Position numbers and translations under genes: made by a program. From the IMG/VR virus record IMGVR_UViG_3300035633_000651, positions 45,678 through 109,677 of that record: 64,000 bases of DNA, one strand, 5' to 3'. The stretch's first letter is position 1; the number at the start of each line of letters is the position of its first letter. Below the pieces are notes generated by a model, which worked only from the letters and a program-made list of their open reading frames with translations, searched no databases and had not been told where the DNA came from. Source of the DNA: a virus. This document shows positions 6,130-26,288 of the stretch, piece by piece.

Positions 6130-6155
6130 GACGATGTCAACGTGAGGATGTCAAC
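6130..6155 (-). promoter_or_regulatory. Direct pair of 12-bp boxes GTTGACATC(C/G)TC
   Basis: 6130-6141 and 6144-6155, between the divergent late and early promoters. Confidence 0.65.
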
Positions 6156-6162
6156 AAGCTTC

Positions 6163-6197
6163 TTGACAGACACCGGACAATGTCGTAAGCTGCCTGC
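6163..6197 (+). promoter_or_regulatory. Leaderless sigma70-type promoter with embedded dyad
   Basis: TTGACA gaca CCGG acaa TGT cg TAAGCT gcctgc ATG. Confidence 0.85.
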
Positions 6198-6965
6198 ATG
6201 TTGACGGACGACATCCGAGACAAACTGCGCAAACTCAACGCCCTCGCGGAGGGCGCGGGCACGCCTGAGGAGGCCGCAGCCGCCCGAGGTCGGATGGCCC
6301 GACTCTGCTTCAAGTTCGGCGTCACGATGGACGACGTCGAGCTGGAGGAGCCCCTCGTCGACGACGAGGAGATCGTCCACGAGGACGACCCCCTCTTCGT
6401 CCAGGCGAAGGTGATGAGCTGGAAATGGCGTCTGGCCGAGGGAATCGCGGTGGTCAATGGCGTCTTTCTCTATCAGCAGCAGGTCCCGTACAAGGTGTTC
6501 GACCCTAACCGAGGGTATTACCGGTACAAACGCAAGGGCGCCCTCATGATGGTCGGCAAGCCGACCGGCGTGCGCATGACGCGCTACCTCTTCCAGATGC
6601 TGCTCAACGACATCGAACGCCTGGCCAAGGTCTACTGCCGTGGGAAGTCGCGGAACTGGGGCGGCAACTGGCGCCACGGCTGCGTGGACACGGTCGCGAA
6701 GAAGGTCAAGGAAGCGTACGGGGAGGCCATCAAAGAGCTGCAGGCGGAGGGTGGCGGCAAGGCGCTGATCCGATTGCAGGACGCCATGGTCACTCTGAAG
6801 GACGCCGAGCGCTTCGCCCGGGCGCGCATGAACCTGACCAAGGGCACGTCGGGTGGCGTCTCGGCCGAGGCCGAGGCGCGAGCGGCAGGCCGCGCTGCGG
6901 GACACGGGATCAAGGTGTCAGGAGGGACGGCCATTTCTGCCGGTCGCCGGCAGTTGACGGGGTGA
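6198..6965 (+). CDS. DUF2786/DUF7168-type protein
   Basis: N-terminal IRDKLRKLNALAEG...EEAAAA...MARL..KFG signature. Confidence 0.75.
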   Translation: MLTDDIRDKLRKLNALAEGAGTPEEAAAARGRMARLCFKFGVTMDDVELEEPLVDDEEIVHEDDPLFVQAKVMSWKWRLAEGIAVVNGVFLYQQQVPYKVFDPNRGYYRYKRKGALMMVGKPTGVRMTRYLFQMLLNDIERLAKVYCRGKSRNWGGNWRHGCVDTVAKKVKEAYGEAIKELQAEGGGKALIRLQDAMVTLKDAERFARARMNLTKGTSGGVSAEAEARAAGRAAGHGIKVSGGTAISAGRRQLTG

Positions 6966-7321
6966 CACAGCCCGACTATGGTCAGGTGATGCCTGATGAT
7001 CACGCACGTGTAGAGGTACGATGCACCCCTGCAGAGAAGGAAACGATGAAGTCGCGCGCAGCTAAGGCCGGGTTTCCCGGACGCGGCTTCGCGACCTGGG
7101 CCCGAGCCGTGTTGCTCGGGCAAAAGCCCAAGACGGACCGACCACCGCCGAACACGAAGCTGCTCTCAGCAGCGGAAGCCGCAGACTACTGTGGCGTGTC
7201 CCGGCAGCAGATTTACGTCTGGGTCCAACAAGGAGAAGTGACGGGCTACGAACTGCCCGAGGGTCTTCGATTGGCGAAGACCGAACTGAAACACCGGCGA
7301 GCGGCAGCGCGCGCCAAGTAG
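6962..7321 (+). CDS. DNA-binding regulator: RHH-like N-terminus plus HTH_17/excisionase-like C-terminus
   Basis: VEVRCTPAEKETMKSRA...ATWARAVLL and LLSAAEAADYCGVSRQQIYVWVQQG. Confidence 0.7.
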   Translation: MTQPDYGQVMPDDHARVEVRCTPAEKETMKSRAAKAGFPGRGFATWARAVLLGQKPKTDRPPPNTKLLSAAEAADYCGVSRQQIYVWVQQGEVTGYELPEGLRLAKTELKHRRAAARAK

Positions 7322-7327
7322 GAGAAG

Positions 7328-7657
7328 ATGGCTATGACTGGGGAAGAAGGCACCAACACGACGAGAGTCTTCGCGCTCTTCGACACCGACGACGAAGTCG
7401 CTCCGCGAGAGCTACTGGACCGGAAGGATGTCGAAGACGCGAAGGCGCTCATCATGCGCTACATCGACAACGACGGTGTGACCAACATCGACACGGTCTA
7501 CAGCGACCCAAGCAGTCCTGGAGACCTGGACCTCTATCAGGCTGTCCAGGAGCTGCTCGACGAGGGGCTGATCGAAGGACCGGCGCTGGCGTCGTGCAGG
7601 ACGCACGAGGAGATGGAGTACCGTGGCACGGACAAGACGACAGCCGGCGTGGGCTGA
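7328..7657 (+). CDS. Hypothetical protein
   Basis: GGAG SD-like sequence upstream; operon packing. Confidence 0.6.
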   Translation: MAMTGEEGTNTTRVFALFDTDDEVAPRELLDRKDVEDAKALIMRYIDNDGVTNIDTVYSDPSSPGDLDLYQAVQELLDEGLIEGPALASCRTHEEMEYRGTDKTTAGVG

Positions 7658-7673
7658 GGGGCTCCGCAGCTTG

Positions 7674-7931
7674 ATGGGTCCGCTCGACGACGCGGCCATC
7701 GAACGCATCCAGGCATTCCTCGATGACCCGTCAGAGGAGACGTGGAACGGCTGCTACAGCCTCTGCGTCGGCGGCATGACCACCGTCTGGAAGGCGGTGT
7801 GCCGGGTCGACCCGGGCTTCCCGCGCTCGAAGAGCATCGGACCTGAGCCGTCGGGCTACGGCTGGCCACGCGTACCGGACCCGTTCACGGTCCGGCGAGC
7901 GCTGAAGGCGTGTCAGACCCAGGCCGCGTAG
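7674..7931 (+). CDS. Hypothetical phage protein
   Basis: MGPLDDAAIERI...; start uncertain. Confidence 0.55.
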   Translation: MGPLDDAAIERIQAFLDDPSEETWNGCYSLCVGGMTTVWKAVCRVDPGFPRSKSIGPEPSGYGWPRVPDPFTVRRALKACQTQAA

Positions 7932-8254
7932 CTCGGCGTGGACGACTCTGGCGCGAGGCAGACGGCACCCGGACGCCGGTCAAGGAGCTGCACGACCGGC
8001 ACCTGAAGCACATCGTGTGGATGTTCAAGAGTCGTGCCAACGATGAGCTGCAACAGTCCCTTGACGGACTCCGTACGCTGTGGGGACAACCGGGCATCGA
8101 GGCGCGCTACAGGCAACTGGAGCGCACGCCGTGGACGGCGGTGGCGAACCTGCTCGGAAAGGCCGAGCACCCGTACGCCTCGTTCGAGGACATCTACACC
8201 GAGGCCGTAGAGCGAGGCCTCGTCGAGGAGAGACCACGGAAGAGTTCAGATTGA
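7910..8254 (+). CDS. Hypothetical protein
   Basis: Fills the gap in the plus-strand operon. Confidence 0.55.
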   Translation: MSDPGRVARRGRLWREADGTRTPVKELHDRHLKHIVWMFKSRANDELQQSLDGLRTLWGQPGIEARYRQLERTPWTAVANLLGKAEHPYASFEDIYTEAVERGLVEERPRKSSD

Positions 8255-8595
8255 CTGAGGACCACATCAAGCTGCTTCGGCACATGTATGTTGGGTGGGA
8301 CGAGTGCGAGTTCGGTGCACCTTGCATCGACCCCAAACGCCCCTACGGCAACGGCGACGGTGTACAAGATATCGCCGAGATCCTGGGCATCGAGACGCCG
8401 AAGAGCTTCGAGCAGATGGACGAGGACGGCACCCTCGACACCTGGTACGAAGAGATGCACCCCAAGCTGTACACGCTGCACCGCCAGACGCTGCAGGCGC
8501 TGCAGATCGTGCTGTGTACGGGGTCGTTCGAGCCGGGGCTCTACCGGAGAGCGCGTCGCTACGACGCCCGCTCGTGGGAGCGCGTCGATGCGTAG
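8251..8595 (+). CDS. Hypothetical phage protein
   Basis: TEDHIKLLRHMYVGWD...IDPKRPYGNGD; start uncertain. Confidence 0.6.
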   Translation: MTEDHIKLLRHMYVGWDECEFGAPCIDPKRPYGNGDGVQDIAEILGIETPKSFEQMDEDGTLDTWYEEMHPKLYTLHRQTLQALQIVLCTGSFEPGLYRRARRYDARSWERVDA

Positions 8596-9325
8596 CCTGC
8601 GCAGGAGCATCGACGGGATGCTGTCCGACTTGCGTCGGAAGTGGCTCCATGTGCATCATGGGGACGGAGCGCTCGATAACCTGAAGTCGCACCTGGCTTC
8701 ATGGATCCAGCGCCTGGAGGAACTCAATGCGGGAAAAGCTGATTCACCTGACCCTGACGCTGGCCTTGACGCCCGTGGTCCTGACGATGGTGACGGGACT
8801 GGCGGTGATCCTCTGGGTCGCGGAGACCCGCGAGCACGCGTCTTCCTAGTCCGCGAGAACACCAGTCGCGACATGCCGACGCACCCCTTTCTCATCCCGG
8901 CCGTGACGACCGAGGGCGCGTTCTGGAACTACGCCGAGCGTGTGGCGCGCAGCTGGACGGAGCTGGAGGAGACCACGGACCAGCTCGACGTCATGGCCTG
9001 GGACGGCGAGCGCTGGCACTTCGCCGAGGTCTACTTCGACGTAGACACGTGGGACCGTCAGCTCGACGTCTTGGTGGACGGCGTGAAGTACGACCCGTCC
9101 GAAGACGTGGACGACGCGAGGCCAGGTGTCAGCCTACAGCTCGCGTTCATCAACCGCGAGACCTCCGAAGAGCGGCACTGCGCCAAGTGCCGCTTCAACG
9201 CATGGAGCGGGAATTTCGCGAACGACCATCACTACTGCCACCTCTACCGAGGCTTCATCCGCATGACGGACGACGGTAAGCACCTCCGCCTTCCCGCATG
9301 CAAAGAGAGCGAGCACACATCATGA
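8588..9325 (+). CDS. Hypothetical, possibly mosaic protein with a Cys-rich C-terminus
   Basis: C-terminal CAKC...HYCH...C; the middle section reads like an off-frame translation. Confidence 0.5.
   Translation: MRSLRRSIDGMLSDLRRKWLHVHHGDGALDNLKSHLASWIQRLEELNAGKADSPDPDAGLDARGPDDGDGTGGDPLGRGDPRARVFLVRENTSRDMPTHPFLIPAVTTEGAFWNYAERVARSWTELEETTDQLDVMAWDGERWHFAEVYFDVDTWDRQLDVLVDGVKYDPSEDVDDARPGVSLQLAFINRETSEERHCAKCRFNAWSGNFANDHHYCHLYRGFIRMTDDGKHLRLPACKESEHTS
8727..8849 (+). CDS. 40-aa single-TM peptide nested out of frame in 8588-9325
   Basis: GGAGGA SD then MREKLIHLTLTLALTPVVLTMVTGLAVILWVAETREHASS*. Confidence 0.5.
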   Translation: MREKLIHLTLTLALTPVVLTMVTGLAVILWVAETREHASS

Positions 9326-9442
9326 AAATCGGAGGCCGCGTCCGCTGGACGTCCCGAGCCGGACGCCATCTACTGGCCGCGTGTGTCTGCCCTGGAGGTC
9401 GTCTCGCATCTGACTTTTTTCGAAAATAGTTGACGTCTGCTC

Positions 9443-9477
9443 TTGACAGACGCCGGGCCCTGTTATATAGTAACAGC
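9443..9477 (+). promoter_or_regulatory. Leaderless sigma70-type promoter with embedded dyad
   Basis: TTGACA gacg CCGG gccc TGT ta TATAGT aacagc ATG. Confidence 0.88.
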
Positions 9478-10005
9478 ATGACGACGACGCAGCAGGCTCC
9501 CCGGACTCAGACCAACCGCCTCACCGCCCGCGCGGTGCACGACAACTTCGACCCCCGGATCGAGGCCATCGAGGCGGCCCTGTCCCGAGGCGCCCAGCCT
9601 AACTCCCTCTTCGCCAACGTGATGACCGTCTCCCTCGGCGTGTTCATCCCCGCCATCTCGCTGACCATGTCATCGCAGGCGGCCAACATGTTTCAGGCCG
9701 GTAACGTGGTCCTCGGCGGCGCCTTCGCGGCCCTGGTTTTCGTGGTCTTGGCGGTGTCCCTGACGCACCTCGCCGAGGCCGTCGAGGACTTGACAGGCTC
9801 CACTCGGTTCATCAGCTGGGCGACCGCCATCGCCTTCGACGCCTGCCTCGTGGCCTTCGAGGTCGCGCACAAGACGGTGGCCAAGGACGACTGGACCGTG
9901 ACCCTGATGATCGCCGTCGTGGCTATCATCTCGGCTGCGCTCAACGTCCACGCTTTCCGCCTCGGGCAGGCGCACCGCGTCGCTGGCGTGGGCCAGGCCG
10001 ACTGA
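9478..10005 (+). CDS. Multi-pass membrane protein (about 4 TM)
   Basis: Four hydrophobic stretches; start set by the leaderless promoter. Confidence 0.7.
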   Translation: MTTTQQAPRTQTNRLTARAVHDNFDPRIEAIEAALSRGAQPNSLFANVMTVSLGVFIPAISLTMSSQAANMFQAGNVVLGGAFAALVFVVLAVSLTHLAEAVEDLTGSTRFISWATAIAFDACLVAFEVAHKTVAKDDWTVTLMIAVVAIISAALNVHAFRLGQAHRVAGVGQAD

Positions 10006-10045
10006 GCCCTGACCCCTGAGGGGCCCCTTGCCCAAGGAGGTGACC

Positions 10046-10402
10046 ATGACTCAGGCGATTGACATGTGCCGGGACGACACTCAGGGTGAGGCGGCGATGT
10101 ACGAAGCAAGGCTTCACATGTCGAACGCGGACGGCACCGTGGCCTTCACGAAGGCGGTGGAGCTGGACGAACCGCCGCGCCCGGGTGCTCGTCTGCGGGG
10201 ACACTTCGCGAACGCGACGCTGGAGGTGACGCGCGTCGTGCTCGATGGCTCTGGCTTCTACGAGGTCTTCGTCGCCGTGTGCGTCCTCGACTTCATCCCT
10301 GCGGCCGAGCTGGAGCCCTACTACACGCGCTCGGGCTGGACCTCCGTCGACCCCTTCGACGAGGACACCGACGTCAACTTTACATTGGAGAGACTCGAAT
10401 GA
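10046..10402 (+). CDS. Hypothetical protein
   Basis: AAGGAGGT SD before ATG 10046; alternative start at 10097. Confidence 0.6.
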   Translation: MTQAIDMCRDDTQGEAAMYEARLHMSNADGTVAFTKAVELDEPPRPGARLRGHFANATLEVTRVVLDGSGFYEVFVAVCVLDFIPAAELEPYYTRSGWTSVDPFDEDTDVNFTLERLE

Positions 10403-10854
10403 CACACCCTCAGATTCACATCCTGCGCGGCCTTCCAGGCTCGGGCAAGTCCACCTGGGTCACGAACGGCGTGAGGTCCGGCGAGCTGTCCGGCATCGCG
10501 GTTGTGTGCTCCGCTGACGACTTCCGCTTCGACGACGAAGGCCGCTACGTCTTCAACCCCAAGGCGAACGCTGAGGTTCACGCGCGCTGCTTTGAGCGCT
10601 TCATCGACGCCCTGCGAGAGCGCCGCGCGAACCACATCGTCGTGGACAACACCAACGTCCGTCGCTTCGAGTACGCCAACTACGTGCGCGTTGCGCTCCT
10701 CGCAGGAGTGCCGCCCGCGAATATTCACGAGATTTCAATGCACACGGACCCGCGCCAACTGCCGGTCCGGACTTTGATGAAGTGGGCCGAGCGCAACGTC
10801 CACAACGTTCCGCTTGACGCGATCGAGCAGATGGCGATGCGGTGGGAGGTATGA
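10399..10854 (+). CDS. P-loop kinase, AAA_33 / polynucleotide-kinase-like
   Basis: ILRGLPGSGKST, CSADDF, IVVDNTN, RNVHNVP motifs. Confidence 0.8.
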   Translation: MTHPQIHILRGLPGSGKSTWVTNGVRSGELSGIAVVCSADDFRFDDEGRYVFNPKANAEVHARCFERFIDALRERRANHIVVDNTNVRRFEYANYVRVALLAGVPPANIHEISMHTDPRQLPVRTLMKWAERNVHNVPLDAIEQMAMRWEV

Positions 10855-11078
10855 CGGTGTACATCGAATCGACTGCGCCCATCTGCATCGAGGCAGAGCT
10901 GAGCGAAGACAGCGAGTCTTGGGACGTGCGTGTCGGAGACGACCTACACGACGGCATCTGCCCTCCGGCGAGCCTGACCGAGGACGAAGTCAAGGCCGGC
11001 TTCGAGAAGGCGCTGGCGAAGGCGCGCGAGCGCAACGACCCCTACTGGGACAGCTACCTGCCAGGAGGATGGACATGA
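10851..11078 (+). CDS. Hypothetical acidic protein
   Basis: ATGA overlaps with both neighbours. Confidence 0.6.
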   Translation: MTVYIESTAPICIEAELSEDSESWDVRVGDDLHDGICPPASLTEDEVKAGFEKALAKARERNDPYWDSYLPGGWT

Positions 11079-11551
11079 CGAAGAAAGCACAAGTTCTCAA
11101 ACCCGACCCAAACTTCAAGTGGCCCGAGAAGGCCTCGGCGCGCCTGCGCATGGCGGTCGATGACGCCATCGCTGCCAAGCGTGCTGGTCATGGCCTCGAC
11201 ATGCGCAGCTGGTTCGACATCGACCCCAGAGGCATCCGCTGCACAGTGTGCTTGGCAGGAGCCGTCATGCTTCACGTGTTCGGCACGCCGCCACCGCCCG
11301 ACCCACGCGCCAACGTGTACACGGAGCGTCGTGACAGTCTTGACCCGGCCGACCTGGACGACCGTGACCACGAGTACTTGATACAGATCGATGAGATCAG
11401 GCGCGGGCACTTCTACATGTACGAGGGCTGGCCGGGGCAACAGCTGACGGAGCTGTACGACGCGCTGGGTCTCGACGAGCACGCCACCACGATTCCGGCG
11501 CTGAAGAAGTTCTACAAGCTGGCGGACTACATGGAGGAGCTGGGACTGTGA
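11075..11551 (+). CDS. Hypothetical protein with a CTVCLAG motif
   Basis: Start/stop overlaps and SD. Confidence 0.65.
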   Translation: MTKKAQVLKPDPNFKWPEKASARLRMAVDDAIAAKRAGHGLDMRSWFDIDPRGIRCTVCLAGAVMLHVFGTPPPPDPRANVYTERRDSLDPADLDDRDHEYLIQIDEIRRGHFYMYEGWPGQQLTELYDALGLDEHATTIPALKKFYKLADYMEELGL

Positions 11552-11901
11552 ACAACTGGTACCGAACCTGGGTTCACATCTACAGCAACGACGGGCTGGT
11601 GGCCAAGCCAGGCGACTACGTTTGGATCAAGGACCGCGAACTCGCTACCCTGGAGGACGTGCTCCAGCACGCCCTCAAAGCTGACGCGCAGGGACGCCCG
11701 CGGACTGTGACGTTCTCCCTGAACACAGGTAGCCTGGTGGACCAGAGTCGATTGTCCCACGTCTCTGCCCTGGAGATGGTGGACAGGGCGCGCAACTATC
11801 ATCCGGGGGCCGAAGCTCGCACCCTGGCCCACGCGCTGGGCATGGAGAACGAGCAGTTTTGGAGATGCCTGCGGTTGATGGTTGATGCGATTGATGCTTG
11901 A
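11548..11901 (+). CDS. Hypothetical protein
   Basis: GTGA overlap with the upstream gene. Confidence 0.55.
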   Translation: MNNWYRTWVHIYSNDGLVAKPGDYVWIKDRELATLEDVLQHALKADAQGRPRTVTFSLNTGSLVDQSRLSHVSALEMVDRARNYHPGAEARTLAHALGMENEQFWRCLRLMVDAIDA

Positions 11902-11932
11902 CAAGAGCCGGGGAGTGTCATAAGGTCTGGGC
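11898..11932 (+). promoter_or_regulatory. Leaderless sigma70-type promoter with embedded dyad
   Basis: TTGACA agag CCGG ggag TGT ca TAAGGT ctgggc ATG. Confidence 0.85.
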
Positions 11933-13228
11933 ATGGCGACGATCGAACTCACCATCAACACCAACTACGTTCCGTCCTGGGGCACCTGGGAAGCCGTCCG
12001 CGAGATCCTGCAGAACGCGAAGGACGCCGACGACCTGGGTCACAAGATGGAAGTCAAGTACCATCCCAAGACCGAGCGCCTCGTCATCAAGAGCGAGGGC
12101 GCAGACCTGACGCGCGAGACACTTCTCCTCGGCGCCACCAGCAAGGCCGGCCGGTCGGACCAGCGCGGGCAGTTCGGCGAGGGCTACAAGCTCGCTCTTC
12201 TCGTCCTGGCGCGTCAGGGCGCCGAAGTCACCATTCACACGCCGCGGGAGACCTGGGTCCCTACGCTCACGGACTCGACCACCTTCGACGGTGCCGAAGT
12301 CCTCACCATCCGCACGCGGCCTCGGAAGTCCCGAACCCAATCGGTGGAGTTCGTCGTCAAAGGGATCACCGAGGCCGCGTGGCGGTCTGTCCAGGCCAAC
12401 TGCCTGTTCCTGCAGACCGCCATGCCGCACATCAAGACGCACGCGGGCTCGGTCCTCACGGACCCCGAGCTGGCCAATAAGCTCTTCGTGGGCGGCCTGT
12501 TCGTTTCGGACCTGCCAGACCGCTACCGCTACGGCTACGACCTCCAGAACGTGCACCTGGACCGTGACCGCAAGATGGCCGAGCCCTGGTCCCTGCGCTG
12601 GGAGATCAGCAAGGTGCTCAATGAGGCGGTCGCCGATGACCAGCTCGACCTCGACAAGGTCCTACGCATGGACTCGGGCGAGATGAAGGCCATGGCGGAG
12701 AACACCGAGTACATCAAGCAGGTGGCCGCCAAGGTCGTGCAGGAGTTCGAGGCCGAGAACGGCGAGGACGCCGTGGCCGTCGACGACATGGCTCAGGCGC
12801 AGCGCGCGGGACAGCACGGTATGAAGGCCGTCGTCGTCAGCCGAGAGAAGCGCCTCGTCATCGAGGCCTGCAAGGGCAAGCTCGACGACCGGATCCAGGA
12901 CCGCGACACCGACACCAAGGTGCTCGTTCAGCCGGACGACCTCGGCGCCGACGAGTGTGCCAACCTCGTCTGGGCCACCGAGCTGGTGGAAGTGTTCGCA
13001 GGACTCACGGAGGCGGTGCAGGTCGTCGAGTTCTACGGGGAGCGCATCGACGGCTGCACGGACGGCAAGACCATTCGCCTGGCCCGCCGCATCCTCACGA
13101 ACCGGGCTCAGCTCATCGCGACCTTCGTCCATGAGGTGGCCCACCGTCACGGTCCGGACGGTTCTGCGGAGCATCGGGCGGCCATCGAAGACATCTTCGC
13201 GAAGATCGTGGTAGGACAGGCGGCATGA
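11933..13228 (+). CDS. GHKL-family ATPase with a C-terminal HEXXH zincin-like motif
   Basis: VREILQNAKDA, GATSK...GQFGEGYK, and HEVAH...H...ED near the C-terminus. Confidence 0.8.
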   Translation: MATIELTINTNYVPSWGTWEAVREILQNAKDADDLGHKMEVKYHPKTERLVIKSEGADLTRETLLLGATSKAGRSDQRGQFGEGYKLALLVLARQGAEVTIHTPRETWVPTLTDSTTFDGAEVLTIRTRPRKSRTQSVEFVVKGITEAAWRSVQANCLFLQTAMPHIKTHAGSVLTDPELANKLFVGGLFVSDLPDRYRYGYDLQNVHLDRDRKMAEPWSLRWEISKVLNEAVADDQLDLDKVLRMDSGEMKAMAENTEYIKQVAAKVVQEFEAENGEDAVAVDDMAQAQRAGQHGMKAVVVSREKRLVIEACKGKLDDRIQDRDTDTKVLVQPDDLGADECANLVWATELVEVFAGLTEAVQVVEFYGERIDGCTDGKTIRLARRILTNRAQLIATFVHEVAHRHGPDGSAEHRAAIEDIFAKIVVGQAA

Positions 13229-13497
13229 AAGCTGTCGTCGTCATCGAGGTTCAAAACCCGGACACGCCGTTCGTGCCTGCCCTGAGCTACTACCGGGAAA
13301 TGGACCTCGGGCTGCCCTTCCCCGGCGTCGGCTGGGAGCTGTACCTGCATGGGTTCTCGGCTCCGGCCGTCATCCGCAAGGCCATCCGGCTGGAGTCTGG
13401 CCGGACCTACCTGGTCTGCACGCTGCCAAGCACACGACCGAAGCCCCCCAAGGGCGACTGGAAGCCCGTCGACTTCGAGGCGCCGTGGCTCGTCTGA
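13225..13497 (+). CDS. Hypothetical protein
   Basis: ATGA overlap. Confidence 0.55.
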   Translation: MKAVVVIEVQNPDTPFVPALSYYREMDLGLPFPGVGWELYLHGFSAPAVIRKAIRLESGRTYLVCTLPSTRPKPPKGDWKPVDFEAPWLV

Positions 13498-13504
13498 TTT
13501 CTCC

Positions 13505-13539
13505 TTGACAGACGCCGGGCTCTGTCGTATGGTCTGAGC
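13505..13539 (+). promoter_or_regulatory. Leaderless sigma70-type promoter with embedded dyad
   Basis: TTGACA gacg CCGG gctc TGT cg TATGGT ctgagc ATG. Confidence 0.88.
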
Positions 13540-13890
13540 ATGACGACGACGGACATCGCCCCCACCAACACCGACGCCACCCGTATGGGCGGCAAGAAGG
13601 TCTTCTACAACAGCTGGGGCTACGGCCAGACAAACATCGACTTCTACGTGGTCGAGCGGGAGAGCGCCTCGAACGTGTGGCTGCGCCGGATCACCTCGCG
13701 ACACACTGAGAACGTCGGCTACATGCAAGACCGCGTGGTGGCCGGCGACAGCTACAGCGACCTGGACACCAAGGTGTACCGCCGCAAGAAGTTCACCTGC
13801 GACGACCGTCAGTACTGCAACAGCCCCAGCGGCTTCGGCGCCTGCTGCCTTTGGGGTGGCGAGCCTCTCACGGAAACGAGCTACGCATGA
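13540..13890 (+). CDS. Small phage protein with an SWGY.QTNIDFY motif
   Basis: FYNSWGYGQTNIDFYVV, a motif I recall from other phage small proteins. Confidence 0.7.
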   Translation: MTTTDIAPTNTDATRMGGKKVFYNSWGYGQTNIDFYVVERESASNVWLRRITSRHTENVGYMQDRVVAGDSYSDLDTKVYRRKKFTCDDRQYCNSPSGFGACCLWGGEPLTETSYA

Positions 13891-14357
13891 AGTTCGTCAT
13901 CGAGTACCGATGTGCTCTGAGCCGTGACGCGTCGCCCGTCTTCCAGACGACGGTCACGGCGCCGAGCAAGGCAGCCGCACAGGAGCGCTTCTACGACACG
14001 GACGACCAGGACTGGGAGGTCCTCAGCATCAGGCGAGAAGCGAGCGCGTTGAGAGACTACATCCCGCTGCCCTTCTGGGACGACGGCCCTGGGATGATGC
14101 GCCTGTGGGGTGAGATGCGTCAGGGGCCGGTGAAGCTGGCGCGCAGGCTCTTCCCTGAGCGGCATTCGGGCTACGTGCGGGACACCGAGAACTTGGTGAA
14201 CCTGGGTGTGAACCGAAGCTGCGAGCTGTCCTGTGCCGCCCGCGGCGAGAAGCGAGGCGCGGAGGTCTACCGCGAAGCGCAGATCATATGCGCAGCGCGC
14301 ATAAGTAATGAGTGCCGCGCATTTCTGCAGGCCAAAGGCTGGGACTTTCCCACTTGA
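13887..14357 (+). CDS. Hypothetical protein
   Basis: ATGA overlap. Confidence 0.55.
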   Translation: MKFVIEYRCALSRDASPVFQTTVTAPSKAAAQERFYDTDDQDWEVLSIRREASALRDYIPLPFWDDGPGMMRLWGEMRQGPVKLARRLFPERHSGYVRDTENLVNLGVNRSCELSCAARGEKRGAEVYREAQIICAARISNECRAFLQAKGWDFPT

Positions 14358-14389
14358 CAAACTCCGGAGACTGTACCAAGGTGACCACC
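14354..14389 (+). promoter_or_regulatory. Leaderless sigma70-type promoter with embedded dyad
   Basis: TTGACA aact CCGG agac TGT ac CAAGGT gaccacc ATG. Confidence 0.8.
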
Positions 14390-14878
14390 ATGACGACGAC
14401 AGCCGATAAGATCCGCAAAGTCATCGCCGAGGCCCGCGAGGACCTCGACTTCCCAGAAGAGGTCCGCGAGGCGGTCCGCTCCCTCGAAGGGCGCAAGATC
14501 GACAAGCGCTTCTACAACGCGGTCGTCCGCGCGCTGGGTGACCGTCTGGAGAGTCACATGTACAGCAACCTCGGCGGCGCGAAGCGCATGGAGTTGACCC
14601 CCGTGGACGGGACGTGCCACCGCTTCCTCATGGGCTGGGACAACGACCGTGACTTCAACCTCACCGAGTTCATCGACCAGAACAGTCCCTACTTCTCGGG
14701 CGCCCGCCAGCGTGAGGACCAGCGCGACGCCCGCACGGACGAGGACATCGAGGTGCTCGCCGCGAAGATCGATGCCTTCAAGGAGGCCAGGGCTGCCCTG
14801 AAGGCGGACCTGGAGAAGCACGGCCGCTGGGCCGACTACATCGACATTGAGGCTCAGGTCATCGGAGAGACGCTATGA
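14390..14878 (+). CDS. Hypothetical helical protein
   Basis: Start set by the promoter (MTTTADK). Confidence 0.65.
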   Translation: MTTTADKIRKVIAEAREDLDFPEEVREAVRSLEGRKIDKRFYNAVVRALGDRLESHMYSNLGGAKRMELTPVDGTCHRFLMGWDNDRDFNLTEFIDQNSPYFSGARQREDQRDARTDEDIEVLAAKIDAFKEARAALKADLEKHGRWADYIDIEAQVIGETL

Positions 14879-15504
14879 ACGCACGTCAGGAAGCACTGGC
14901 CGAACTGAAGGCCAAGCAGGACAAAGAGCGCGCCAAGTTGGAGCGCGAGTACAACATTCGGGAGCAGCTGCCCGAGGGCGCAGAGCCGCGCTTCGTGACG
15001 ACGGTCAGCGGCCGGGTCTTCGTGACCTACGAGGTCGACACCTTCGAGGAGGCCTGGCAGGTCCTAGACCTCTACGAGCTGCTCGACTGCGAGGCACGCG
15101 AGTCTGGATGCCTGAGCATCGCACCGCCCGAGGCGCAGGACCCGAGCTACCAGAACGGTCGCCTTCGCTGGAAGCTGCCTGAGATGGTCGAGCTGTGCTC
15201 CCACGGCGGCTCGGGCTACAGCCCGACCTTCGAGGTGGGCGGCTACGGCAAGCACGGCGACCTGGTGGTCAACCTCACGGTCAAGGTCGCGAAGGCGGCC
15301 TACGGGCTGCACGCGTACCAGCCGATGCGTCACACGCTGTGGGGTCCAGAGAACGACGGTCCGGTCCGTCACAGCCCGCTGAAAAGCACAACGACCTACC
15401 ACGTCAAGTGGGGCGGAGGGACGCCAGGGTCGCACCGCTGCAGCTACTACGTCTCGGGGACGCAGCAGGCGCAGGAAGCCGTCGAGGCGGCCCTGAAGCT
15501 ATGA
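14875..15504 (+). CDS. Hypothetical protein
   Basis: ATGA overlaps. Confidence 0.65.
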   Translation: MNARQEALAELKAKQDKERAKLEREYNIREQLPEGAEPRFVTTVSGRVFVTYEVDTFEEAWQVLDLYELLDCEARESGCLSIAPPEAQDPSYQNGRLRWKLPEMVELCSHGGSGYSPTFEVGGYGKHGDLVVNLTVKVAKAAYGLHAYQPMRHTLWGPENDGPVRHSPLKSTTTYHVKWGGGTPGSHRCSYYVSGTQQAQEAVEAALKL

Positions 15505-16430
15505 ACAAGTGGCCAGGCATCGAGTCGTTGAAGCACGTCACCAAGTACGTGCGTAAGTGCACGCCCTACGCGCGGGTGCACTACTACGCGAAGGTGAAAC
15601 TGCACGGCACCAACGCGGGTGTTGCCCGCCTGCAAGATGGCACGTTGCAGGCTCAGTCGCGGTCCCGCGTCATCACGCCCGAAGACGACAACCAGGGCTT
15701 CGCGGCCTGGCTTCGCGACAACACCGGCCGCTTCTTGAAGTGCCCGAGCGGCGTTACTGTGTTCGGTGAGTGGTACGGTCAAGGGATCATGAAAGGCACT
15801 GCAGCGTCACAGGTCGAAGGTAGGCACTTCGCCCCCTTCGCGGTCATGGGCGCAGGTCGCATCGACCCAAGTCCGGCTTTGTGCCGTGCGTGGTCGGGCT
15901 GCGACAGCCTACCCTGGGCCGCTTCGCTAGCCGTCGACTTCAATGACGTCGAGGCGTCTCGTGGGACATTGGAGAGGCTGCTTCAAAAGGTCGAAGCAGA
16001 AGACCCGTTTATCCTGGCACTGCACGGCGTCAAGGGCCTGGGCGAGGGGCTCGTGTTCTACCCGCAGCTTGCAGACTCGGGCGACGTGCCTGCGCCAGAA
16101 CATTACGCGAACATGATCTTCAAGCTGAAGGGCGACAAGCACAAGGTGAAGGCGACCAAACAGAAGGTCGAGCTGGCACCCGAGGCGATTGCGAGTCGGA
16201 AGGCGTTCGCCGAGGCCTTCGTCACCGACGCACGCCTCGACCAGTGCCTCGGTGAGCTGGGCGTGAGTCGTGACACGTTCGAGATGCACCAGACGGGTGA
16301 TGTCATGCGCTGGATGTCGACGGACATCCAGAAAGAGTCGGTGCAGGAGCTGGAAGAGTCCGGCATGACCTGGAAGGATGTGGTGTCCGAAACGCAACGC
16401 GCTGTGCGTGAGAAGTTGAGAGGACTCTGA
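15501..16430 (+). CDS. RNA ligase, Rnl2-like
   Basis: KVKLHGTNAG (motif I), QSRSR, FGEWYG, GEGLVF, FKLKG; helical C-terminal domain. Confidence 0.85.
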   Translation: MNKWPGIESLKHVTKYVRKCTPYARVHYYAKVKLHGTNAGVARLQDGTLQAQSRSRVITPEDDNQGFAAWLRDNTGRFLKCPSGVTVFGEWYGQGIMKGTAASQVEGRHFAPFAVMGAGRIDPSPALCRAWSGCDSLPWAASLAVDFNDVEASRGTLERLLQKVEAEDPFILALHGVKGLGEGLVFYPQLADSGDVPAPEHYANMIFKLKGDKHKVKATKQKVELAPEAIASRKAFAEAFVTDARLDQCLGELGVSRDTFEMHQTGDVMRWMSTDIQKESVQELEESGMTWKDVVSETQRAVREKLRGL

Positions 16431-16645
16431 TGACCGCCGAGGACATCACTGGGTCGCGCCTGCAGACGCCCGAGCAGCGTTACAAGCAGGCGCTGGCCGA
16501 GGCTCAGATCGAGGGCGAGATGCGCGCGATGCGCATCATGTCCGACGTCCTCACTGAGGCGGGGGTGCCCTACACGGATATCTCGGCGATCATCCTGGAG
16601 ACCGTTCGCCGCATCGGCGACGAGAAGGCAGCAGCTGCGAAGTGA
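16430..16645 (+). CDS. Hypothetical protein
   Basis: TGATG overlap. Confidence 0.55.
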   Translation: MTAEDITGSRLQTPEQRYKQALAEAQIEGEMRAMRIMSDVLTEAGVPYTDISAIILETVRRIGDEKAAAAK

Positions 16646-16932
16646 AGCGCCGGTGGCTAGACGGAGACAAGTGGGCTCAGGTCCGAGCGATGGTCGAAGG
16701 CCTGCTCCGTGAGTACGAGGTGCCTCCGGAAGAGACGGGTGGATACGTTGTGTGGCTCAACCCTGAAGAGTGGCCGCCCAACGAGCTGAGCGCCCAACTT
16801 GGGATCTCCGTCTTCGGGAAGTACCGCATCACGCTGCGTCACACACGACGTTGGAACGAGGCGGTAGGTGCGGCGCGCCACCAGATCCTCCGAGGACGGG
16901 AGAGCCTGCAGACACTGGGGGCGATGGAGTGA
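16642..16932 (+). CDS. Hypothetical protein
   Basis: GTGA overlaps. Confidence 0.5.
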   Translation: MKRRWLDGDKWAQVRAMVEGLLREYEVPPEETGGYVVWLNPEEWPPNELSAQLGISVFGKYRITLRHTRRWNEAVGAARHQILRGRESLQTLGAME

Positions 16933-17264
16933 AGCCGCCGTGCGCTAAGCCGTGTGCGGCGTGCCCGTTTCGGCGCGACTCGCTGCCCGGGTGGCTCGGA
17001 GAGTCGACTCCGTTGGAATTCATGTGGGAGCAGACGATGCACGATGTGCCCATGCCTTGCCACCTGACCGTGAACTACAGCGACCCCGATTGGGAGTCGA
17101 AGCTCGACCGGGCCAAGTACTGCGCAGGCGCGTTGGTGTTCTTTCGGAACATCTCGAAGCTCAGTCGAGACCCCGACCGGCCGCGCATGGAGGCGGACAA
17201 GGAGACGGTGTTCGCGTCACCCGACGAGTTCGTGCTGCACCACATGAAAGGGAAGAAGCCATGA
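16929..17264 (+). CDS. Cys-rich small protein (DUF6283-like)
   Basis: KPCAACPFRR...MPCH...CAGAL. Confidence 0.65.
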   Translation: MKPPCAKPCAACPFRRDSLPGWLGESTPLEFMWEQTMHDVPMPCHLTVNYSDPDWESKLDRAKYCAGALVFFRNISKLSRDPDRPRMEADKETVFASPDEFVLHHMKGKKP

Positions 17265-17479
17265 ATGAGATACTATGGCCGGTGTTTTGGTTCGGCTGCA
17301 GTGGATTCACGCTGGCCATTCTATACCACCGAAGCACGCCGGCTGACCGAAAGAGCAGTGGGATGGCCCCGTCCACGTACGAGGTAACGTCAATTGTGGC
17401 GCTTTTGGCTGGGCCGCTCGGGCTCGCCACAACCCTCTGCTTCGCCTCGGCCTCGTGGGTCTTCGGAAAGTTCAGGTGA
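17261..17479 (+). CDS. Small 2-TM membrane protein
   Basis: Two hydrophobic stretches; ATGA overlap. Confidence 0.5.
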   Translation: MNEILWPVFWFGCSGFTLAILYHRSTPADRKSSGMAPSTYEVTSIVALLAGPLGLATTLCFASASWVFGKFR

Positions 17480-17487
17480 CGCCGTGC

Positions 17488-17522
17488 TTGACATCGTCCG
17501 GGTTCTGTCGTATGCTCAGCTC
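17488..17522 (+). promoter_or_regulatory. Leaderless sigma70-type promoter with embedded dyad
   Basis: TTGACA tcgt CCGG gttc TGT cg TATGCT cagctc ATG. Confidence 0.88.
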
Positions 17523-17972
17523 ATGACCGACGGACACCGCATCCAGAACCGGCGCGACGCCTTTTACTACATCTTCGGCGGCAAGGCGCTGTTCACGCTC
17601 GTGAGTCAGAAGTCGGGTCAGCGCTTCACCTACAGGGTGAACGTGGGGCGCGCAGGCTCCAAGTGGGAGGGCTGCTACTTCATCGACGTGCTGACCGGCT
17701 CGGACAACACCTCCGACTACGCCGCGCTCGGCATGATCAAGTCCAAGGGCGGCTTCATCAAGACCAGCCGCTCGCGCATCGACACCGACGCCCCGTCGCA
17801 CCGGGCGTTCCGTTGGCTCGTCGAGCAGGCGCTCATGAGCGACGCGGGGTTCGAGCAGTGCGAGGTCTGGCACCATGGGCACTGCAGCGCGTGCGGCCGT
17901 CGGCTCACCGATCCGGACTCCATCGCACGCGGCTTGGGTCCCGTTTGCGCCGAGAAGATGGTGCCGGTATGA
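17523..17972 (+). CDS. DUF6011 zinc-finger domain protein
   Basis: CSACGRRLTDPDSIARGLGPVCA. Confidence 0.8.
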   Translation: MTDGHRIQNRRDAFYYIFGGKALFTLVSQKSGQRFTYRVNVGRAGSKWEGCYFIDVLTGSDNTSDYAALGMIKSKGGFIKTSRSRIDTDAPSHRAFRWLVEQALMSDAGFEQCEVWHHGHCSACGRRLTDPDSIARGLGPVCAEKMVPV

Positions 17973-20866: not shown

Positions 20867-20911
20867 TTGACAGGTTCCGGACGCGCCCTGCAGCGTGCTG
20901 ACGATGTCAAC
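20867..20911 (+). promoter_or_regulatory. Variant early promoter with a 12-bp box over the start codon
   Basis: TTGACA ggtt CCGG, 18-nt spacer, CAGCGT-N7-ATG; GACGATGTCAAC at 20900-20911. Confidence 0.55.
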
Positions 20912-21299
20912 GCGCTTTTACGTGGCCGCCACGCTGTCCGACCGAGACCTCGCTTCCCGGCTCATCATGTCCGCCCCTGCGAACTGGATGTGCACCTTCA
21001 ACTGGACCGAGGTGGAGCCGGCCAAACCCGACGTCACGGAGCGTCGCCGGATCGCGCTGTGCGAGGTGGCGGCCGTCCAGCACGCCGACCTGCTGGTGCT
21101 CTTGCTTCCTGGGGCTCGGGGTTCGCACACGGAGCTAGGGGTCGCGCTGGGGGCCGACATCCCGGTCTACATCACGTACCGCGCCGAGGACGCGCCAGCG
21201 CGCGACTGTGCCTTCTACTGGCACCCTGCGGTGCAGGGCCACATTCCCGTCGACGACCTGCTGATGGAGCCTTGGCCCGAGGTCTTTGAGAACTGTTGA
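20904..21299 (+). CDS. Nucleoside 2-deoxyribosyltransferase-like (NDT/DNPH1 fold) protein
   Basis: FYVAA...E..AVQHADLLVLLLPGARGSHTELGVALG. Confidence 0.7.
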   Translation: MSTRFYVAATLSDRDLASRLIMSAPANWMCTFNWTEVEPAKPDVTERRRIALCEVAAVQHADLLVLLLPGARGSHTELGVALGADIPVYITYRAEDAPARDCAFYWHPAVQGHIPVDDLLMEPWPEVFENC

Positions 21300-21327
21300 C
21301 ATCCTCTCGGGGGCTGAGTATGTCAAC
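21295..21327. promoter_or_regulatory. Inverted box pair / probable promoter-operator of ro60
   Basis: GTTGACATCCTC-N9-GAGTATGTCAAC. Confidence 0.65.
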
Positions 21328-21397: not shown

Positions 21398-23032
21398 ATG
21401 GACTACACCAAGCACCTCCGCGCCCACCAGCGCGAGCGCGCCAAGAGCACGCAGACCAAGAACGCCGCTGGCGGCTACACCTTCCAGCTGGACGCCCTCG
21501 GGCGCCTGCAGCGCTTCCTCATCCTGGGAAGCGAGGGAGGCACCTACTATGCCAACGAGCGCGACCTGACCCGCGACAACGTTGCCACGCTCGATGGCAT
21601 CCTTGACAAGGCCGGCGAGGCCATCGCCGCCGTTCGCCTGATCGAGGAGGTCTCGACGCAGGGCCGCGCGCCCAAGAACGACCCGGCCATCTTCGCGCTC
21701 GCCTACATCACGGCGAACAGCAAGCACGACGAGGTCCGCGCCGCTGCCTACAAGGCGATGCCGCGCGTCTGCCGGACGGGCACGCACCTGTTCCAGTGGG
21801 CGGACCTGATGAAGAAGCTGGGCAGCTCGCTCGGAAGCTCGGGCGCGAAGCGGGCCATCAGCCGGTGGTACCTGGAGAAGGACCCCCAGAAGCTGGCCCT
21901 GCAGGTCACGAAGTACAAGCAGCGGTCGGGCTGGACCCACCGCGACGTGATGCTTCAGGGCCATGTCCACCCGCCCGGCGGACAGTCGATGGACGCCCGC
22001 GTGATGCGCGACGTGCTCCAGTACGCTGCGAAGCCGGACACCGTCGAGTTCTCGAAGGACTCGGCCATCGGGCTGCTGTACGCCGCGCAGGCGCTCCCGT
22101 ACGCGAAGACCGAGGCGGAGGTGGTCAAGCTGATCACCGAGTACAAGGCGCCGCGTGAGCTGGTGCCGACCGAGCACCTGAACTCACCGGCGGTCTGGGA
22201 GGCCTTGCTGGAGGACATGCCGATGACCGCGACCGTGCGGAACCTCGGCAAGATGACCTCGGTGGGTCTGCTGAAGCCGCTGAGCAACTCGACCAAGAAG
22301 GTCCTGGACCGGCTCGGAAACGCCGAGCAGGTGCTGCGCTCGCGAATGCATCCGCTGAACGTCCTGGTCGCGAAGCTGACCTACGAGCAGGGCCGCGGCA
22401 CGCGAGGCTCGTTGAGCTGGGACGTGGTGGGGTCTGTGGTGGGTGCGCTCGAAGGTGCCTTCTACAGCGCGTTTGGCAACGTGCGCCCGAGCGGAAAGCG
22501 GACACTGGTTGCAGTGGACGTCTCCGCCTCGATGGACGGGTGTTGGGGCTTCGGCGTCCAGGACGTCTGCGGGTGCCCGGCACTCACGCCTCGCATCGCG
22601 GCGGCGTGCATGGCCATGGTGACCCTGCGGACCGAACCCTTGGTCCACATCGTGGGCTTCAGCCACAAGCTGGTGCCCATCAACGTCCGGCCCTCGGACA
22701 GCCTGGAGACCGTCGTCGAAAAGATGAAGCGGGTTCCTATGGGCGGGACGGACGCAGCGCAGCCGATGCTCTACGCCGCCCAAGAGGGCATCAACGTGGA
22801 CGGCTTCGTGTCGTACACCGACAACGAAACCTGGGCCGGGTACCACCACCCGTTCGAGGCTCTGAACGCCTACCGGAAGAAGCAGGGCATCGACGCCCGC
22901 ATGGTGACGGTGGCCTTCACCGCGACCGAGTCGACCATCGGGGACACCGAGGACACAGGCTCGCTGGACGTGGTCGGGTTCGACACCGCGGCGCCTCAGC
23001 TGATCGCGGACTTCGTCGGAGGCCAGGTCTAG
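21398..23032 (+). CDS. rsr: Ro60/Rsr RNA-binding protein (TROVE + vWA)
   Basis: NAAGGY.F, RLQRFLILGSEGGTYY, VCRTGTHLF, KYKQRSGWTHRD, MPMTATVRNLG, MIDAS DVSAS, GGTD, YTDNETW, DVVGFD. Confidence 0.95.
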   Translation: MDYTKHLRAHQRERAKSTQTKNAAGGYTFQLDALGRLQRFLILGSEGGTYYANERDLTRDNVATLDGILDKAGEAIAAVRLIEEVSTQGRAPKNDPAIFALAYITANSKHDEVRAAAYKAMPRVCRTGTHLFQWADLMKKLGSSLGSSGAKRAISRWYLEKDPQKLALQVTKYKQRSGWTHRDVMLQGHVHPPGGQSMDARVMRDVLQYAAKPDTVEFSKDSAIGLLYAAQALPYAKTEAEVVKLITEYKAPRELVPTEHLNSPAVWEALLEDMPMTATVRNLGKMTSVGLLKPLSNSTKKVLDRLGNAEQVLRSRMHPLNVLVAKLTYEQGRGTRGSLSWDVVGSVVGALEGAFYSAFGNVRPSGKRTLVAVDVSASMDGCWGFGVQDVCGCPALTPRIAAACMAMVTLRTEPLVHIVGFSHKLVPINVRPSDSLETVVEKMKRVPMGGTDAAQPMLYAAQEGINVDGFVSYTDNETWAGYHHPFEALNAYRKKQGIDARMVTVAFTATESTIGDTEDTGSLDVVGFDTAAPQLIADFVGGQV

Positions 23033-24840: not shown

Positions 24841-25315
24841 GCTCGTCCTCCTCGTCCTCGTCGGGGACCGACGGGTCTCGCTGAGGGCAGACGTCCGGGC
24901 GCATGCACTGGATCCTTCCCTCATCGTCGACGGTCCACTCTTCGAGCAGTGCACCGCACAAGTCGCAGTTCGCGCTTGGGTCGGTCTCCGGCTCCTGCAG
25001 CCCTTCGAGCTTCGCAAGGGCCGCCAGCATGTCCGCCTGCAGTGCAGGAGGCGCCTTCGTTTTGACCTCGTCGATCAACGGGTCGACGGTGCCCTGCACG
25101 GTGACAACGAACTGCACGAGGCGTGCCTGGTCCATGACCTGCATGAAGCCGGCCTTACTGAAGCAGACTGCCAATCGTGCCATGCGGCCGTTGGCCTCGG
25201 CGAAGTCTTTGACGTACTCGACGTGGTTGCTGGCGTTCGACCAGTTAGGCCGAAACCCCATGCTCGACATGGTCTGGGCGATGTGTTGCGCCCGGGTCAG
25301 TTTTCTTGGCGGCAT
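24833..25315 (-). CDS. Hypothetical protein with a Cys-rich, acidic C-terminus
   Basis: AGGAG SD before MPPRKL; CDLC...C...C. Confidence 0.6.
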   Translation of the reverse strand: MPPRKLTRAQHIAQTMSSMGFRPNWSNASNHVEYVKDFAEANGRMARLAVCFSKAGFMQVMDQARLVQFVVTVQGTVDPLIDEVKTKAPPALQADMLAALAKLEGLQEPETDPSANCDLCGALLEEWTVDDEGRIQCMRPDVCPQRDPSVPDEDEEDELA

Positions 25316-26288
25316 ACCGTCTCCTGAGAGCGTAGAGCGTACGATCGTGTACGCCGAACGCCTGGCACGCCACGGCAGCGCCGACTTCGTCGGCCAAAGA
25401 GACGAGCGCACGTCCCTCTGACTCGGTGAGCGCCGCACCATCGAGCCCCAGTACCCGACGACGACGCTGTTCGGGATCCACAAGTCCCGAGGTTTCGAGT
25501 TCGAGCACGCGGTCCGTGTGACCGAGTGCTTCAACCAGTTTCGCAGCCGCCTTGCGGAAGACGCGACTGACGCCCGAGCTGCGGTCGAGGCTCATCGCTT
25601 CGGCCAGCCACCCGTGCAGGTTCGTATCTTGGCTTGCACCGCGGTAGCGTCCGGTCTGCGTGAGACAGAACCGGAGTACGCGGTACTCGCGAGTCGTGAG
25701 CGTGGCCCCGTCCTCGACCAGCTGAAGCGCCTGCGCAACGGGTGTCAGCTGCGGTTCGGGCTCGGGTTCCGGCTCAGGTTCGAGGAAAGGCTCAGGCGGT
25801 CCGGTCAGCACCTGTCCTGCCGTGACTTGCGCGTTCGTCTCGCGCAGCGACCACTCCAGGTCGTCATCGGTCGTGTCGAGCTGCATCGACCGGGCGTACA
25901 TGCGCTGCTTCTCGACGTACTTCAGTGCCCAGCCGGTCATGACGCCCTTCTTCGGACTGAAGAGGTAGTGCAGGGGCCAGGCGCGTTCTCCGAGCTTGTA
26001 CTCGCTCAGCAGGTACTCGACGATCGTGGACTGCACTTCGACCTTCAGACCTTCACGGTCGTCGACGCTGCAGTTCCGCTCGATGAACTTGACGGTCTGC
26101 AGGACCTTTGGTTCGAGCATCTGCAAGAGCAGACGCGTGGCTGCGTCGCGCTTGATGCCGAGCTTCAACCGACAGACGAGCAGGTTGATCACCAACACCT
26201 CGTCGCTTGGCGCCTTGGACGTGTTCCAGCACTTCCGCTTCAGCGGGCAGTTTTGGCAGTCCTGGCTGATGACCGGCAGACGACTCAC
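25245..26288 (-). CDS. Divergent sigma70-family factor with an N-terminal CxxCx5C motif and an extra C-terminal HTH
   Basis: Region-2-like helices; region-4-like LTTREYRVL...LAEAMSLDRSSGVSRVFRKAAAKL; second HTH ACQAFGVHDRTLYALRRR. Confidence 0.65.
   Translation of the reverse strand: MSRLPVISQDCQNCPLKRKCWNTSKAPSDEVLVINLLVCRLKLGIKRDAATRLLLQMLEPKVLQTVKFIERNCSVDDREGLKVEVQSTIVEYLLSEYKLGERAWPLHYLFSPKKGVMTGWALKYVEKQRMYARSMQLDTTDDDLEWSLRETNAQVTAGQVLTGPPEPFLEPEPEPEPEPQLTPVAQALQLVEDGATLTTREYRVLRFCLTQTGRYRGASQDTNLHGWLAEAMSLDRSSGVSRVFRKAAAKLVEALGHTDRVLELETSGLVDPEQRRRRVLGLDGAALTESEGRALVSLADEVGAAVACQAFGVHDRTLYALRRRYAAKKTDPGATHRPDHVEHGVSA

Follow-up and report, generated by a model that had tools for sequence, protein, structure and literature searches.

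A CCGG element linked to the -35 box in predicted leaderless promoters of a phage, and a candidate protein that may read it

Introduction

The promoters of MerR-type regulators have overlong spacers of 19-20 bp, which are realigned by the bound dimer. The stoperators of mycobacteriophage L5 gp71 and the operators of P1 C1 are short sites that are dispersed in many copies over the genome, some of them overlapping a -35 box; these sites are asymmetric, and many of them lie inside genes. Inverted repeats within promoters are bound by Aca repressors, including the ribbon-helix-helix (RHH) protein Aca14, both at the operon that encodes the repressor and at operons next to it (PMC13551039). Among promoter elements that are contacted by RNA polymerase itself, the full extended -10 motif reads T-17 R-16 T-15 G-14, in which G-14 is the base preferred by the polymerase and the most important one of the motif, and T-17 G-16, which 8% of M. 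tuberculosis promoters contain, is a studied contact of sigma domain 3 (PMC6212719). PafBC promoters have no -35 box, and their -26 element with a conserved GTC triplet is read by a helix-turn-helix (HTH) domain (PMC8635444). Here, we describe a family of promoters that carry the motif ACA-N4-CCGG-N4-TGT across the -35 box and the spacer in a 64,000-nucleotide stretch of viral DNA, hereafter called the window, which corresponds to bases 45678-109677 of the IMG/VR viral contig IMGVR_UViG_3300035633_000651 (total length 109,677 bp). Positions marked "contig" are counted from the first base of the contig and positions marked "window" from the first base of the window; the phage itself, which is uncultured, is labeled G000.

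An earlier note, made from the letters of the window, had described the motif as a hidden dyad and had proposed either an operator for a dimeric regulator or a methylation-sensitive switch at CCGG. The analysis below compares this motif with the described systems, with the relatives of the phage and with the proteins that the phage encodes.

Copies of the motif and promoter classes

The motif ACA-N4-CCGG-N4-TGT was present exactly six times in the window (6166, 9446, 11901, 13508, 14357 and 17491), always on the plus strand; the expectation from shuffled sequence was 0.08, and none of 100 shuffles reached six copies. All six sites read TTGACA-N4-CCGG-N4-TGT-N2-(T/C)ANNNT, as the earlier note had stated, and the extension to GACA...TGTC was confirmed for the four promoters at 6163, 11898, 13505 and 17488 (Table 1). 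A motif search of the whole contig revealed a set larger than the one first noted, with 10 full copies that include the TGT (class A) and six credible copies of the CCGG part only (class B), the latter being defined as TTGACA-N4-CCGG without the TGT and with CAnnnT replacing TAnnnT. In addition to the six window sites, class A contained contig 37452, 34410 (TTGACG), 25757 (CCGT) and 13778 (minus strand, CTGACA), and class B contained contig 16914, 20122, 22344, 35389, 66544 (which is window 20867) and 33061 (minus strand). The two partial copies that had been noted before, at window 10059 and 20867, are both present; the one at 20867 is a credible class B promoter, but the one at 10059 is doubtful, being located inside an open reading frame (ORF) with its own Shine-Dalgarno (SD) sequence. 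When direct repeats of the region were collected with a neutral repeat finder, the promoter module ranked first among the families, with repeats of 41-57 nt at 63-85% identity.

We also observed a near-palindrome, TTGACA-TG-CCGG-CATG-TGTCAA, in a divergent intergenic region at contig 33040-33061. Its minus strand is a CCGG promoter with a leaderless GTG at 33025, and its plus strand is promoter-like too.

Table 1. Positions of the promoters, boxes and genes discussed in the text (window numbering unless marked "contig").
Feature	Position	Strand	Details
Class A promoter	6163..6200	+	TTGACA 6163-6168, CCGG 6173-6176, TGTC 6181-6184, -10 TAAGCT 6186-6191, ATG 6198
Class A promoter	9443..9480	+	TGTT; -10 TATAGT; ATG 9478; gene begins with ATGACGACGAC
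Class A promoter	11898..11935	+	TGTC; -10 TAAGGT; ATG 11933; 431-aa HATPase-like gene downstream
Class A promoter	13505..13542	+	TGTC; -10 TATGGT; ATG 13540; gene begins with ATGACGACGAC
Class A promoter	14354..14392	+	TGTA; -10 CAAGGT; ATG 14390; gene begins with ATGACGACGAC
Class A promoter	17488..17525	+	TGTC; -10 TATGCT; ATG 17523; DUF6011 gene downstream
Class B promoter	20867..20906	+	TTGACA-N4-CCGG, TGT absent, -10 CAGCGT, ATG 20904; GATGTCAAC box overlaps start codon
Doubtful CCGG-only copy	10059..10099	+	within ORF with its own SD sequence and ATG 10046; downstream ATG 10097 in frame
Leaderless promoter without CCGG	6954..6991	+	TTGACG-17-TATGGT-6-ATG 6989; directly precedes the gene of the candidate reader
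Candidate reader (RHH plus winged helix)	6989..7321	+	110 aa; N-terminal RHH, 15-residue linker, Xis/MerR-type winged helix
Tandem-HTH protein	contig 17157-17429 (upstream of window)	+	90 aa; two sigma70 region-4-type HTH units; Pfam Sigma70_r4, E = 1e-11
GATGTCAAC boxes	6133-6141, 6147-6155, 20903-20911	+	
GATGTCAAC boxes	28301-28309, 28179-28187, 21295-21303	-	
Ro60 gene	21398-23032		full-length (TROVE + vWA)
Small WYL-domain protein	26759-27136	-	125 aa
Peptidase M15	28324-28899	-	probable endolysin

With regard to the type of promoter, every site had TTGACA or a 5/6 match to it, A-11 and T-7 were kept in classes A and B, and the spacers were 17 bp long at nine sites and 18 bp long at four. 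At every class A and class B site, an ATG was located 6-7 nt past the -10 box and opened an ORF of 61-431 codons. Because this distance leaves no space for a ribosome-binding site, the mRNAs should be leaderless, and judging from the sequence layout, transcription should begin at the ATG. The best explanation of all these sites is that they are host-RNA-polymerase promoters of the sigma70/sigmaA type fused to a start codon. No match to sigma region 2 that would point to a phage sigma for these promoters was found on the contig; a sigma-like gene (25245-26288) was considered for this role and rejected, as it gave only a weak HTH_23 match. A role of the dyad in RNA structure does not apply, since the dyad is upstream of the predicted transcript start.

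Four class A genes (starting at window 9478, 13540 and 14390 and at contig 37487) open with ATGACGACGAC, which encodes Met-Thr-Thr-Thr; the contig has five copies of this string, where 0.06 would be expected. This start may serve as a translation signal or an initial-transcript signal of the leaderless mRNAs. The sequence GACGGAC was also seen inside other genes of the set.

The arms of the dyad and the unexplained CCGG

The dyad pattern itself is real, but its two arms were found to be the -35 box and the T-17 G-16 T-15 of a known motif, so that the pattern is no proof of an operator. The TG had been placed one base off the standard extended -10 position; it is actually two bases upstream of T-15 G-14 and falls exactly on T-17 G-16. 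Upon comparison with the full extended -10 promoters, we found that the -35 box, the 17-bp spacer, T-17, G-16, T-15 and TAnnnT match position for position; the differences are that G-14 never occurs here and that the described motif leaves the CCGG at -25 to -22 unaccounted for (PMC6212719). In particular, T-17, G-16 and T-15 were present in 10 of 10 class A promoters and G-14 in none of them, the base at -14 being C in seven of the 10. Any promoter that combines a consensus -35 box, a 17-bp spacer and the full extended -10 motif will contain ACA-N12-TGT, and since the arms are standard promoter elements, they alone give no evidence of an operator.

Two features are not accounted for by the polymerase, namely the CCGG and the C at -14. 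CCGG is invariant, whereas the N4 blocks on either side of it are near-random. Genuine symmetry is supported only by the exactly central position of CCGG and by the C at -14, which mirrors G-33 and stands in place of the G preferred by the polymerase.

CCGG was found at N4 after TTGACA in 14 of the 46 TTGACA hexamers on the contig, and every other spacing occurred zero or one time, while the distance from CCGG to the -10 box floats between 9 and 10 bp. Because CCGG is fixed to the -35 box and variable to the -10 box, the unit is the -35 box plus CCGG; the centers of the two are 9 bp apart, which is approximately one helical turn. This anchoring bears on an explanation that we consider unlikely, in which the -35 box and CCGG are one bipartite, asymmetric site (TTGACA-N4-CCGG) for a two-headed monomer or for a cofactor attached to the polymerase. 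Such a factor would mark the phage promoters and aid the polymerase, especially at class B promoters with their weak CAnnnT -10 boxes, and the TGT would be a separate sigma domain 3 contact of the strong class A promoters. Across the 15-16 promoters of classes A and B, and also in the relative G001 (see below), what stays invariant is indeed the -35 box plus CCGG and not the dyad. Of the 14 plus-strand CCGG sites of the present phage, 13 have a perfect TTGACA as their -35 box, as do all seven exact CCGG sites of G001. The natural candidate would be the tandem-HTH protein listed in Table 1, whose gene is the second behind the class B promoter at contig 16914, within the tRNA region. A precedent is provided by PafBC, which reads -23 to -28 with the polymerase bound, at promoters where sigmaA polymerase uses a canonical -10 box (PMC8635444), and the present phage also encodes a small WYL-domain protein. 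However, PafBC-type promoters are without a -35 box, while the present promoters have a perfect one and their element is CCGG. A perfect -35 box with a 17-bp spacer should also need no activator, the tandem-HTH protein is an orphan that was not found in the available part of G001, and C-14 would be left unexplained.

Distribution of the element in relatives and databases

Protein-based searches of IMG/VR revealed only one true relative, and this contig, G001 (43.5 kb, 26% complete, 58% G+C), was the one informative relative that was read. Approximately 20 genes are common to G001 and the present phage, with amino-acid identities of 36-67%. In G001, CCGG was found at N5 after TTGACA at 7 of 17 TTGACA sites, with none at N3 or N6, and all of these promoters are predicted to be leaderless. 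The G001 orthologs of the 431-aa gene and of the DUF6011 gene are preceded by a CCGG (N5) promoter and a CCGT (N5) promoter, respectively. Since CCGG was kept in G001 and the TGT arm was not, the conserved common element is CCGG, which has been shifted by 1 bp as a set.

The sole annotated relative was Rctr197k (KX853510.1; 197 kb, 36 genes in common), a bioreactor virus with 44% identity over an 827-aa protein. It had no CCGG motif and one TTGACA-type leaderless promoter. We also observed that, instead of TTGACA promoters, Rctr197k carries approximately 20 copies of the unrelated AAAGATCTGAGCTTCT, which is probably its own promoter type. With regard to conservation in related phages, the lack of which the earlier note had named as a refutation, CCGG holds in G001 at its new spacing, the TGT arm does not, and Rctr197k is without the motif. 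The motif was likewise absent from approximately 160 loci of more distant relatives, and a metagenome scan revealed no relative carrying it. Closer relatives are known from proteins alone, namely P0002 (marker 78% identical, 67 kb contig), P0125 (a homolog of the candidate reader, 173 kb) and P0126/P0008 (18.2 kb).

Elsewhere, the full pattern was found as scattered singletons only, with 7 in IMG/VR and 32 in GTDB. Five candidate host genomes contained 2-11 copies per 3.7-16 Mb, compared with 14 in 0.11 Mb here, and a host-wide promoter feature was rejected because these genomes show no such preference. Taken across relatives, databases and candidate hosts, this distribution indicates that the element belongs to the phage lineage and is not a host promoter style. 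A keyword-based literature search revealed no described CCGG spacer element in phage promoters, which is not proof of absence.

The conservation pattern also bears on the proposal that CCGG is a methylation-sensitive switch, in which cytosine methylation by a host or phage enzyme would alter promoter use. CCGG is palindromic and a classic methyltransferase target, and sigma cofactors that read methylation are known, such as GcrA in Caulobacter. However, no C5 or N4/N6 methyltransferase (PF00145, PF01555) was found in the six frames of the 110-kb contig, which covers 66% of the genome. With 777 CCGG sites on the contig, those in the promoters do not stand out as targets, and this number is only mildly depleted relative to the approximately 1160 sites expected from base composition. 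Additionally, the 1-bp shift in G001 together with the fixed distance to the -35 box fits a protein contact better than a mark. The switch thus received no support, and we judge it very improbable.

Possible gene gain and promoter cassettes

The comparison with G001 also revealed a region of possible gene gain. In the present phage, the 431-aa gene and the DUF6011 gene are separated by approximately 4 kb (window 13225-17480) that include two additional class A cassettes, and the interval between their orthologs in G001 contains one small ORF only, which suggests that genes were gained as promoter-plus-gene modules. The packing is extreme: the TGA within TTGACA also ends the upstream gene at four sites (window 11898 and 14354; contig 34410 and 35389), and four promoters (contig 16914, 20122, 22344 and 25757) begin 0-2 nt past the 3' end of a tRNA gene, so that protein-coding cassettes are spliced straight between tRNAs. 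A scan for terminator-like hairpins gave a background result (11 versus 8.7 expected), with none beside the promoters.

These observations are relevant to a different explanation, which has no dedicated factor at all. A family of very strong promoter-plus-ATG cassettes would have spread by duplication and recombination during gene addition, and CCGG and TGTC would have been inherited, or kept for a spacer shape favorable to the host polymerase. It is consistent with the direct-repeat family described above, in which some pairs (9443/13505) are alike even in the N4 blocks, with the sharp module boundaries at stop codons and tRNA genes, and with the two additional cassettes that separate genes lying close together in G001; that sigma70 senses spacer sequence near -18 is also known (PMC3130263). 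Nevertheless, CCGG is invariant despite randomized flanks, it has outlasted 36-67% protein divergence, all promoters of G001 have it at N5, shifted as one unit, and the candidate host genomes have no such preference. The modules resemble the PeSL cassettes of T4-type phages, in that they are repeated early-promoter modules at gene boundaries and linked to gene shuffling, but they have no stem-loop terminator of the PeSL kind, their mRNAs are predicted to be leaderless and they contain the CCGG core. We consider this explanation doubtful, to much the same degree as the bipartite site.

A candidate reader with RHH and winged-helix domains

Judging from sequence and a structural model, the best candidate reader of the site is a small protein that combines an RHH domain with a winged helix-turn-helix (RHH-wHTH). 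Its gene follows a DUF2786/DUF7168 gene (6198-6965) as the second one behind promoter 6163, and has its own CCGG-less leaderless promoter in both G000 and G001. Pfam searches identified a NikA-like RHH domain and an HTH_17 domain. In the AlphaFold2 model (12 sequences, pLDDT 83), the secondary structure was as expected, with two RHH helices joined by a 15-residue linker to a winged helix of the beta-alpha-alpha-beta-beta type, and a Foldseek search with the wing domain revealed BldC, mycobacteriophage Xis and SoxR at a probability of 1.0. An ortholog is present in G001 (E = 1e-14), at the same divergent gene position as in the present phage; none was found in Rctr197k. The family is rare, with approximately 10 full-length members among 1.8 billion representatives. 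No sequence relative was found in the PDB, and the species genomes searched gave one partial match only.

RHH proteins bind DNA as dimers, with a symmetric central site as their target. With two wings tethered to such a dimer, the layout of the heads would fit the arm-core-arm arrangement of the site.

The arrangement of the operon is similar to that of the Aca systems, in which a small HTH or RHH repressor gene is located downstream in an operon whose strong phage promoter holds an inverted repeat, and the repeat recurs at neighboring operons to form a small regulon (PMC13551039). Here, promoter 6163 carries GACA-N4-CCGG-N4-TGTC. There are several differences: the repeat arms are polymerase contacts, the site is present at 10-16 promoters over approximately 53 kb, the candidate combines RHH and winged-helix domains in one chain, no anti-CRISPR gene was identified, and binding of the candidate to the repeat is a prediction. 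As in MerR operators, the dyad runs from inside the -35 box to beside the -10 box, and the wing of the candidate is MerR/Xis-like, but the spacers here are 17-18 bp long. Unlike the dispersed sites of L5 and P1, every credible copy is a complete promoter set against an ATG.

A second repeated box, GATGTCAAC, was observed in six copies on the contig against 0.4 expected. Two direct copies (6133..6155) are just upstream of promoter 6163, one falls on the start codon at 20904 and another covers the -10 box of a minus-strand leaderless promoter at 28327. The box was absent from G001. These boxes may be a second operator class.

Genomic context

The contig was estimated to be 66% complete, which corresponds to a genome of approximately 165 kb, with a G+C content of 64% and 32 tRNA genes. 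The small genes form a long plus-strand block and the structural genes, including that of a baseplate J protein, a minus-strand block; most of the structural proteins had no PHROG or Pfam family match, and a megablast search of annotated phages with the region gave no match. A miniature CRISPR system and a full-length Ro60 gene are also present. Among cellular proteins, the closest homologs of Ro60 belong to Myxococcota (Kofleriaceae, Polyangiaceae; 42-48% identity), but naming the host from them was rejected, as this identity is too weak and is a hint at most. The small WYL-domain protein, in which no HTH was detected, and the peptidase M15 are located between the early and structural blocks.

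Discussion

Taken together, we tentatively favor a composite promoter-operator for a dimeric phage regulator, with the RHH-wHTH protein as the candidate, although our confidence in it falls a little short of even. The operator for a dimeric regulator that had been proposed earlier is still the best single reading, and it now has a candidate protein; its premise was partly wrong, since the arms are polymerase elements. In the composite promoter-operator, TTGACA, T-17 G-16 T-15 and TAnnnT would be ordinary polymerase contacts, and the lineage-specific CCGG would be the core of the binding site for the phage-encoded dimer. A class A site would present the full 20-bp interrupted palindrome GACA-N4-CCGG-N4-TGTC, with arms that overlap the contacts of sigma region 4 and region 3, and a class B site would present the left half and the core only. 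The central DNA-reading ribbon of the RHH dimer would take CCGG, and the two tethered wings would take the arms. Binding of the regulator would compete with the polymerase and lower the output of all these promoters at once, in the manner of an early shut-off or of negative feedback, and repression would be tighter in class A than in class B. The regulator gene would be served by promoter 6163, as the second gene of that operon, and additionally by its own CCGG-less promoter. We infer the binding of a protein to the site, the identity of that protein and the direction of regulation from these features.

Several points weigh against the composite promoter-operator. Standard promoter elements account for both arms, so that only CCGG and C-14 favor an operator, and the inner N4 blocks are without symmetry. 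Class B requires a half-site explanation. Six of eight G001 promoters are without the TGT arm, the exact TGT mirror being present in two of eight, and the TG in G001 is at the ordinary -15/-14 position. The RHH-wHTH protein could read the GATGTCAAC boxes adjoining its own operon instead, and the match between the occurrence of this protein and that of CCGG promoters rests on three genomes, two of which are fragmentary.

CCGG might also be a new auxiliary promoter element, read by a phage protein together with the intact -35 box, an idea to which we give less weight than to a bipartite site or a spreading cassette. The reader, working on or beside the host RNA polymerase, would be either the RHH-wHTH dimer or the tandem-HTH protein, and the phage would thereby tag its own promoters for preferential use or for a timed hand-over. 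This would be a form of "sigma adaptation" that keeps the -35 box and has co-evolved by 1 bp between two phages.

What is particular to this phage is the CCGG anchored to the -35 box, its 1-bp shift in the relative and the rare RHH-wHTH candidate. The shift between two diverged phages is a natural specificity-swap experiment. A note of caution applies to promoter palindromes of this kind in general, as a consensus -35 box with a full extended -10 motif always yields a "hidden dyad"; such palindromes need evidence beyond their arms. If one phage protein reads the CCGG core, no fewer than 16 transcription units of this large and gene-rich phage would be under the control of a single small factor, and the class A genes, which are mostly small genes of unknown function, would be a ready list of co-regulated early or host-takeover genes.

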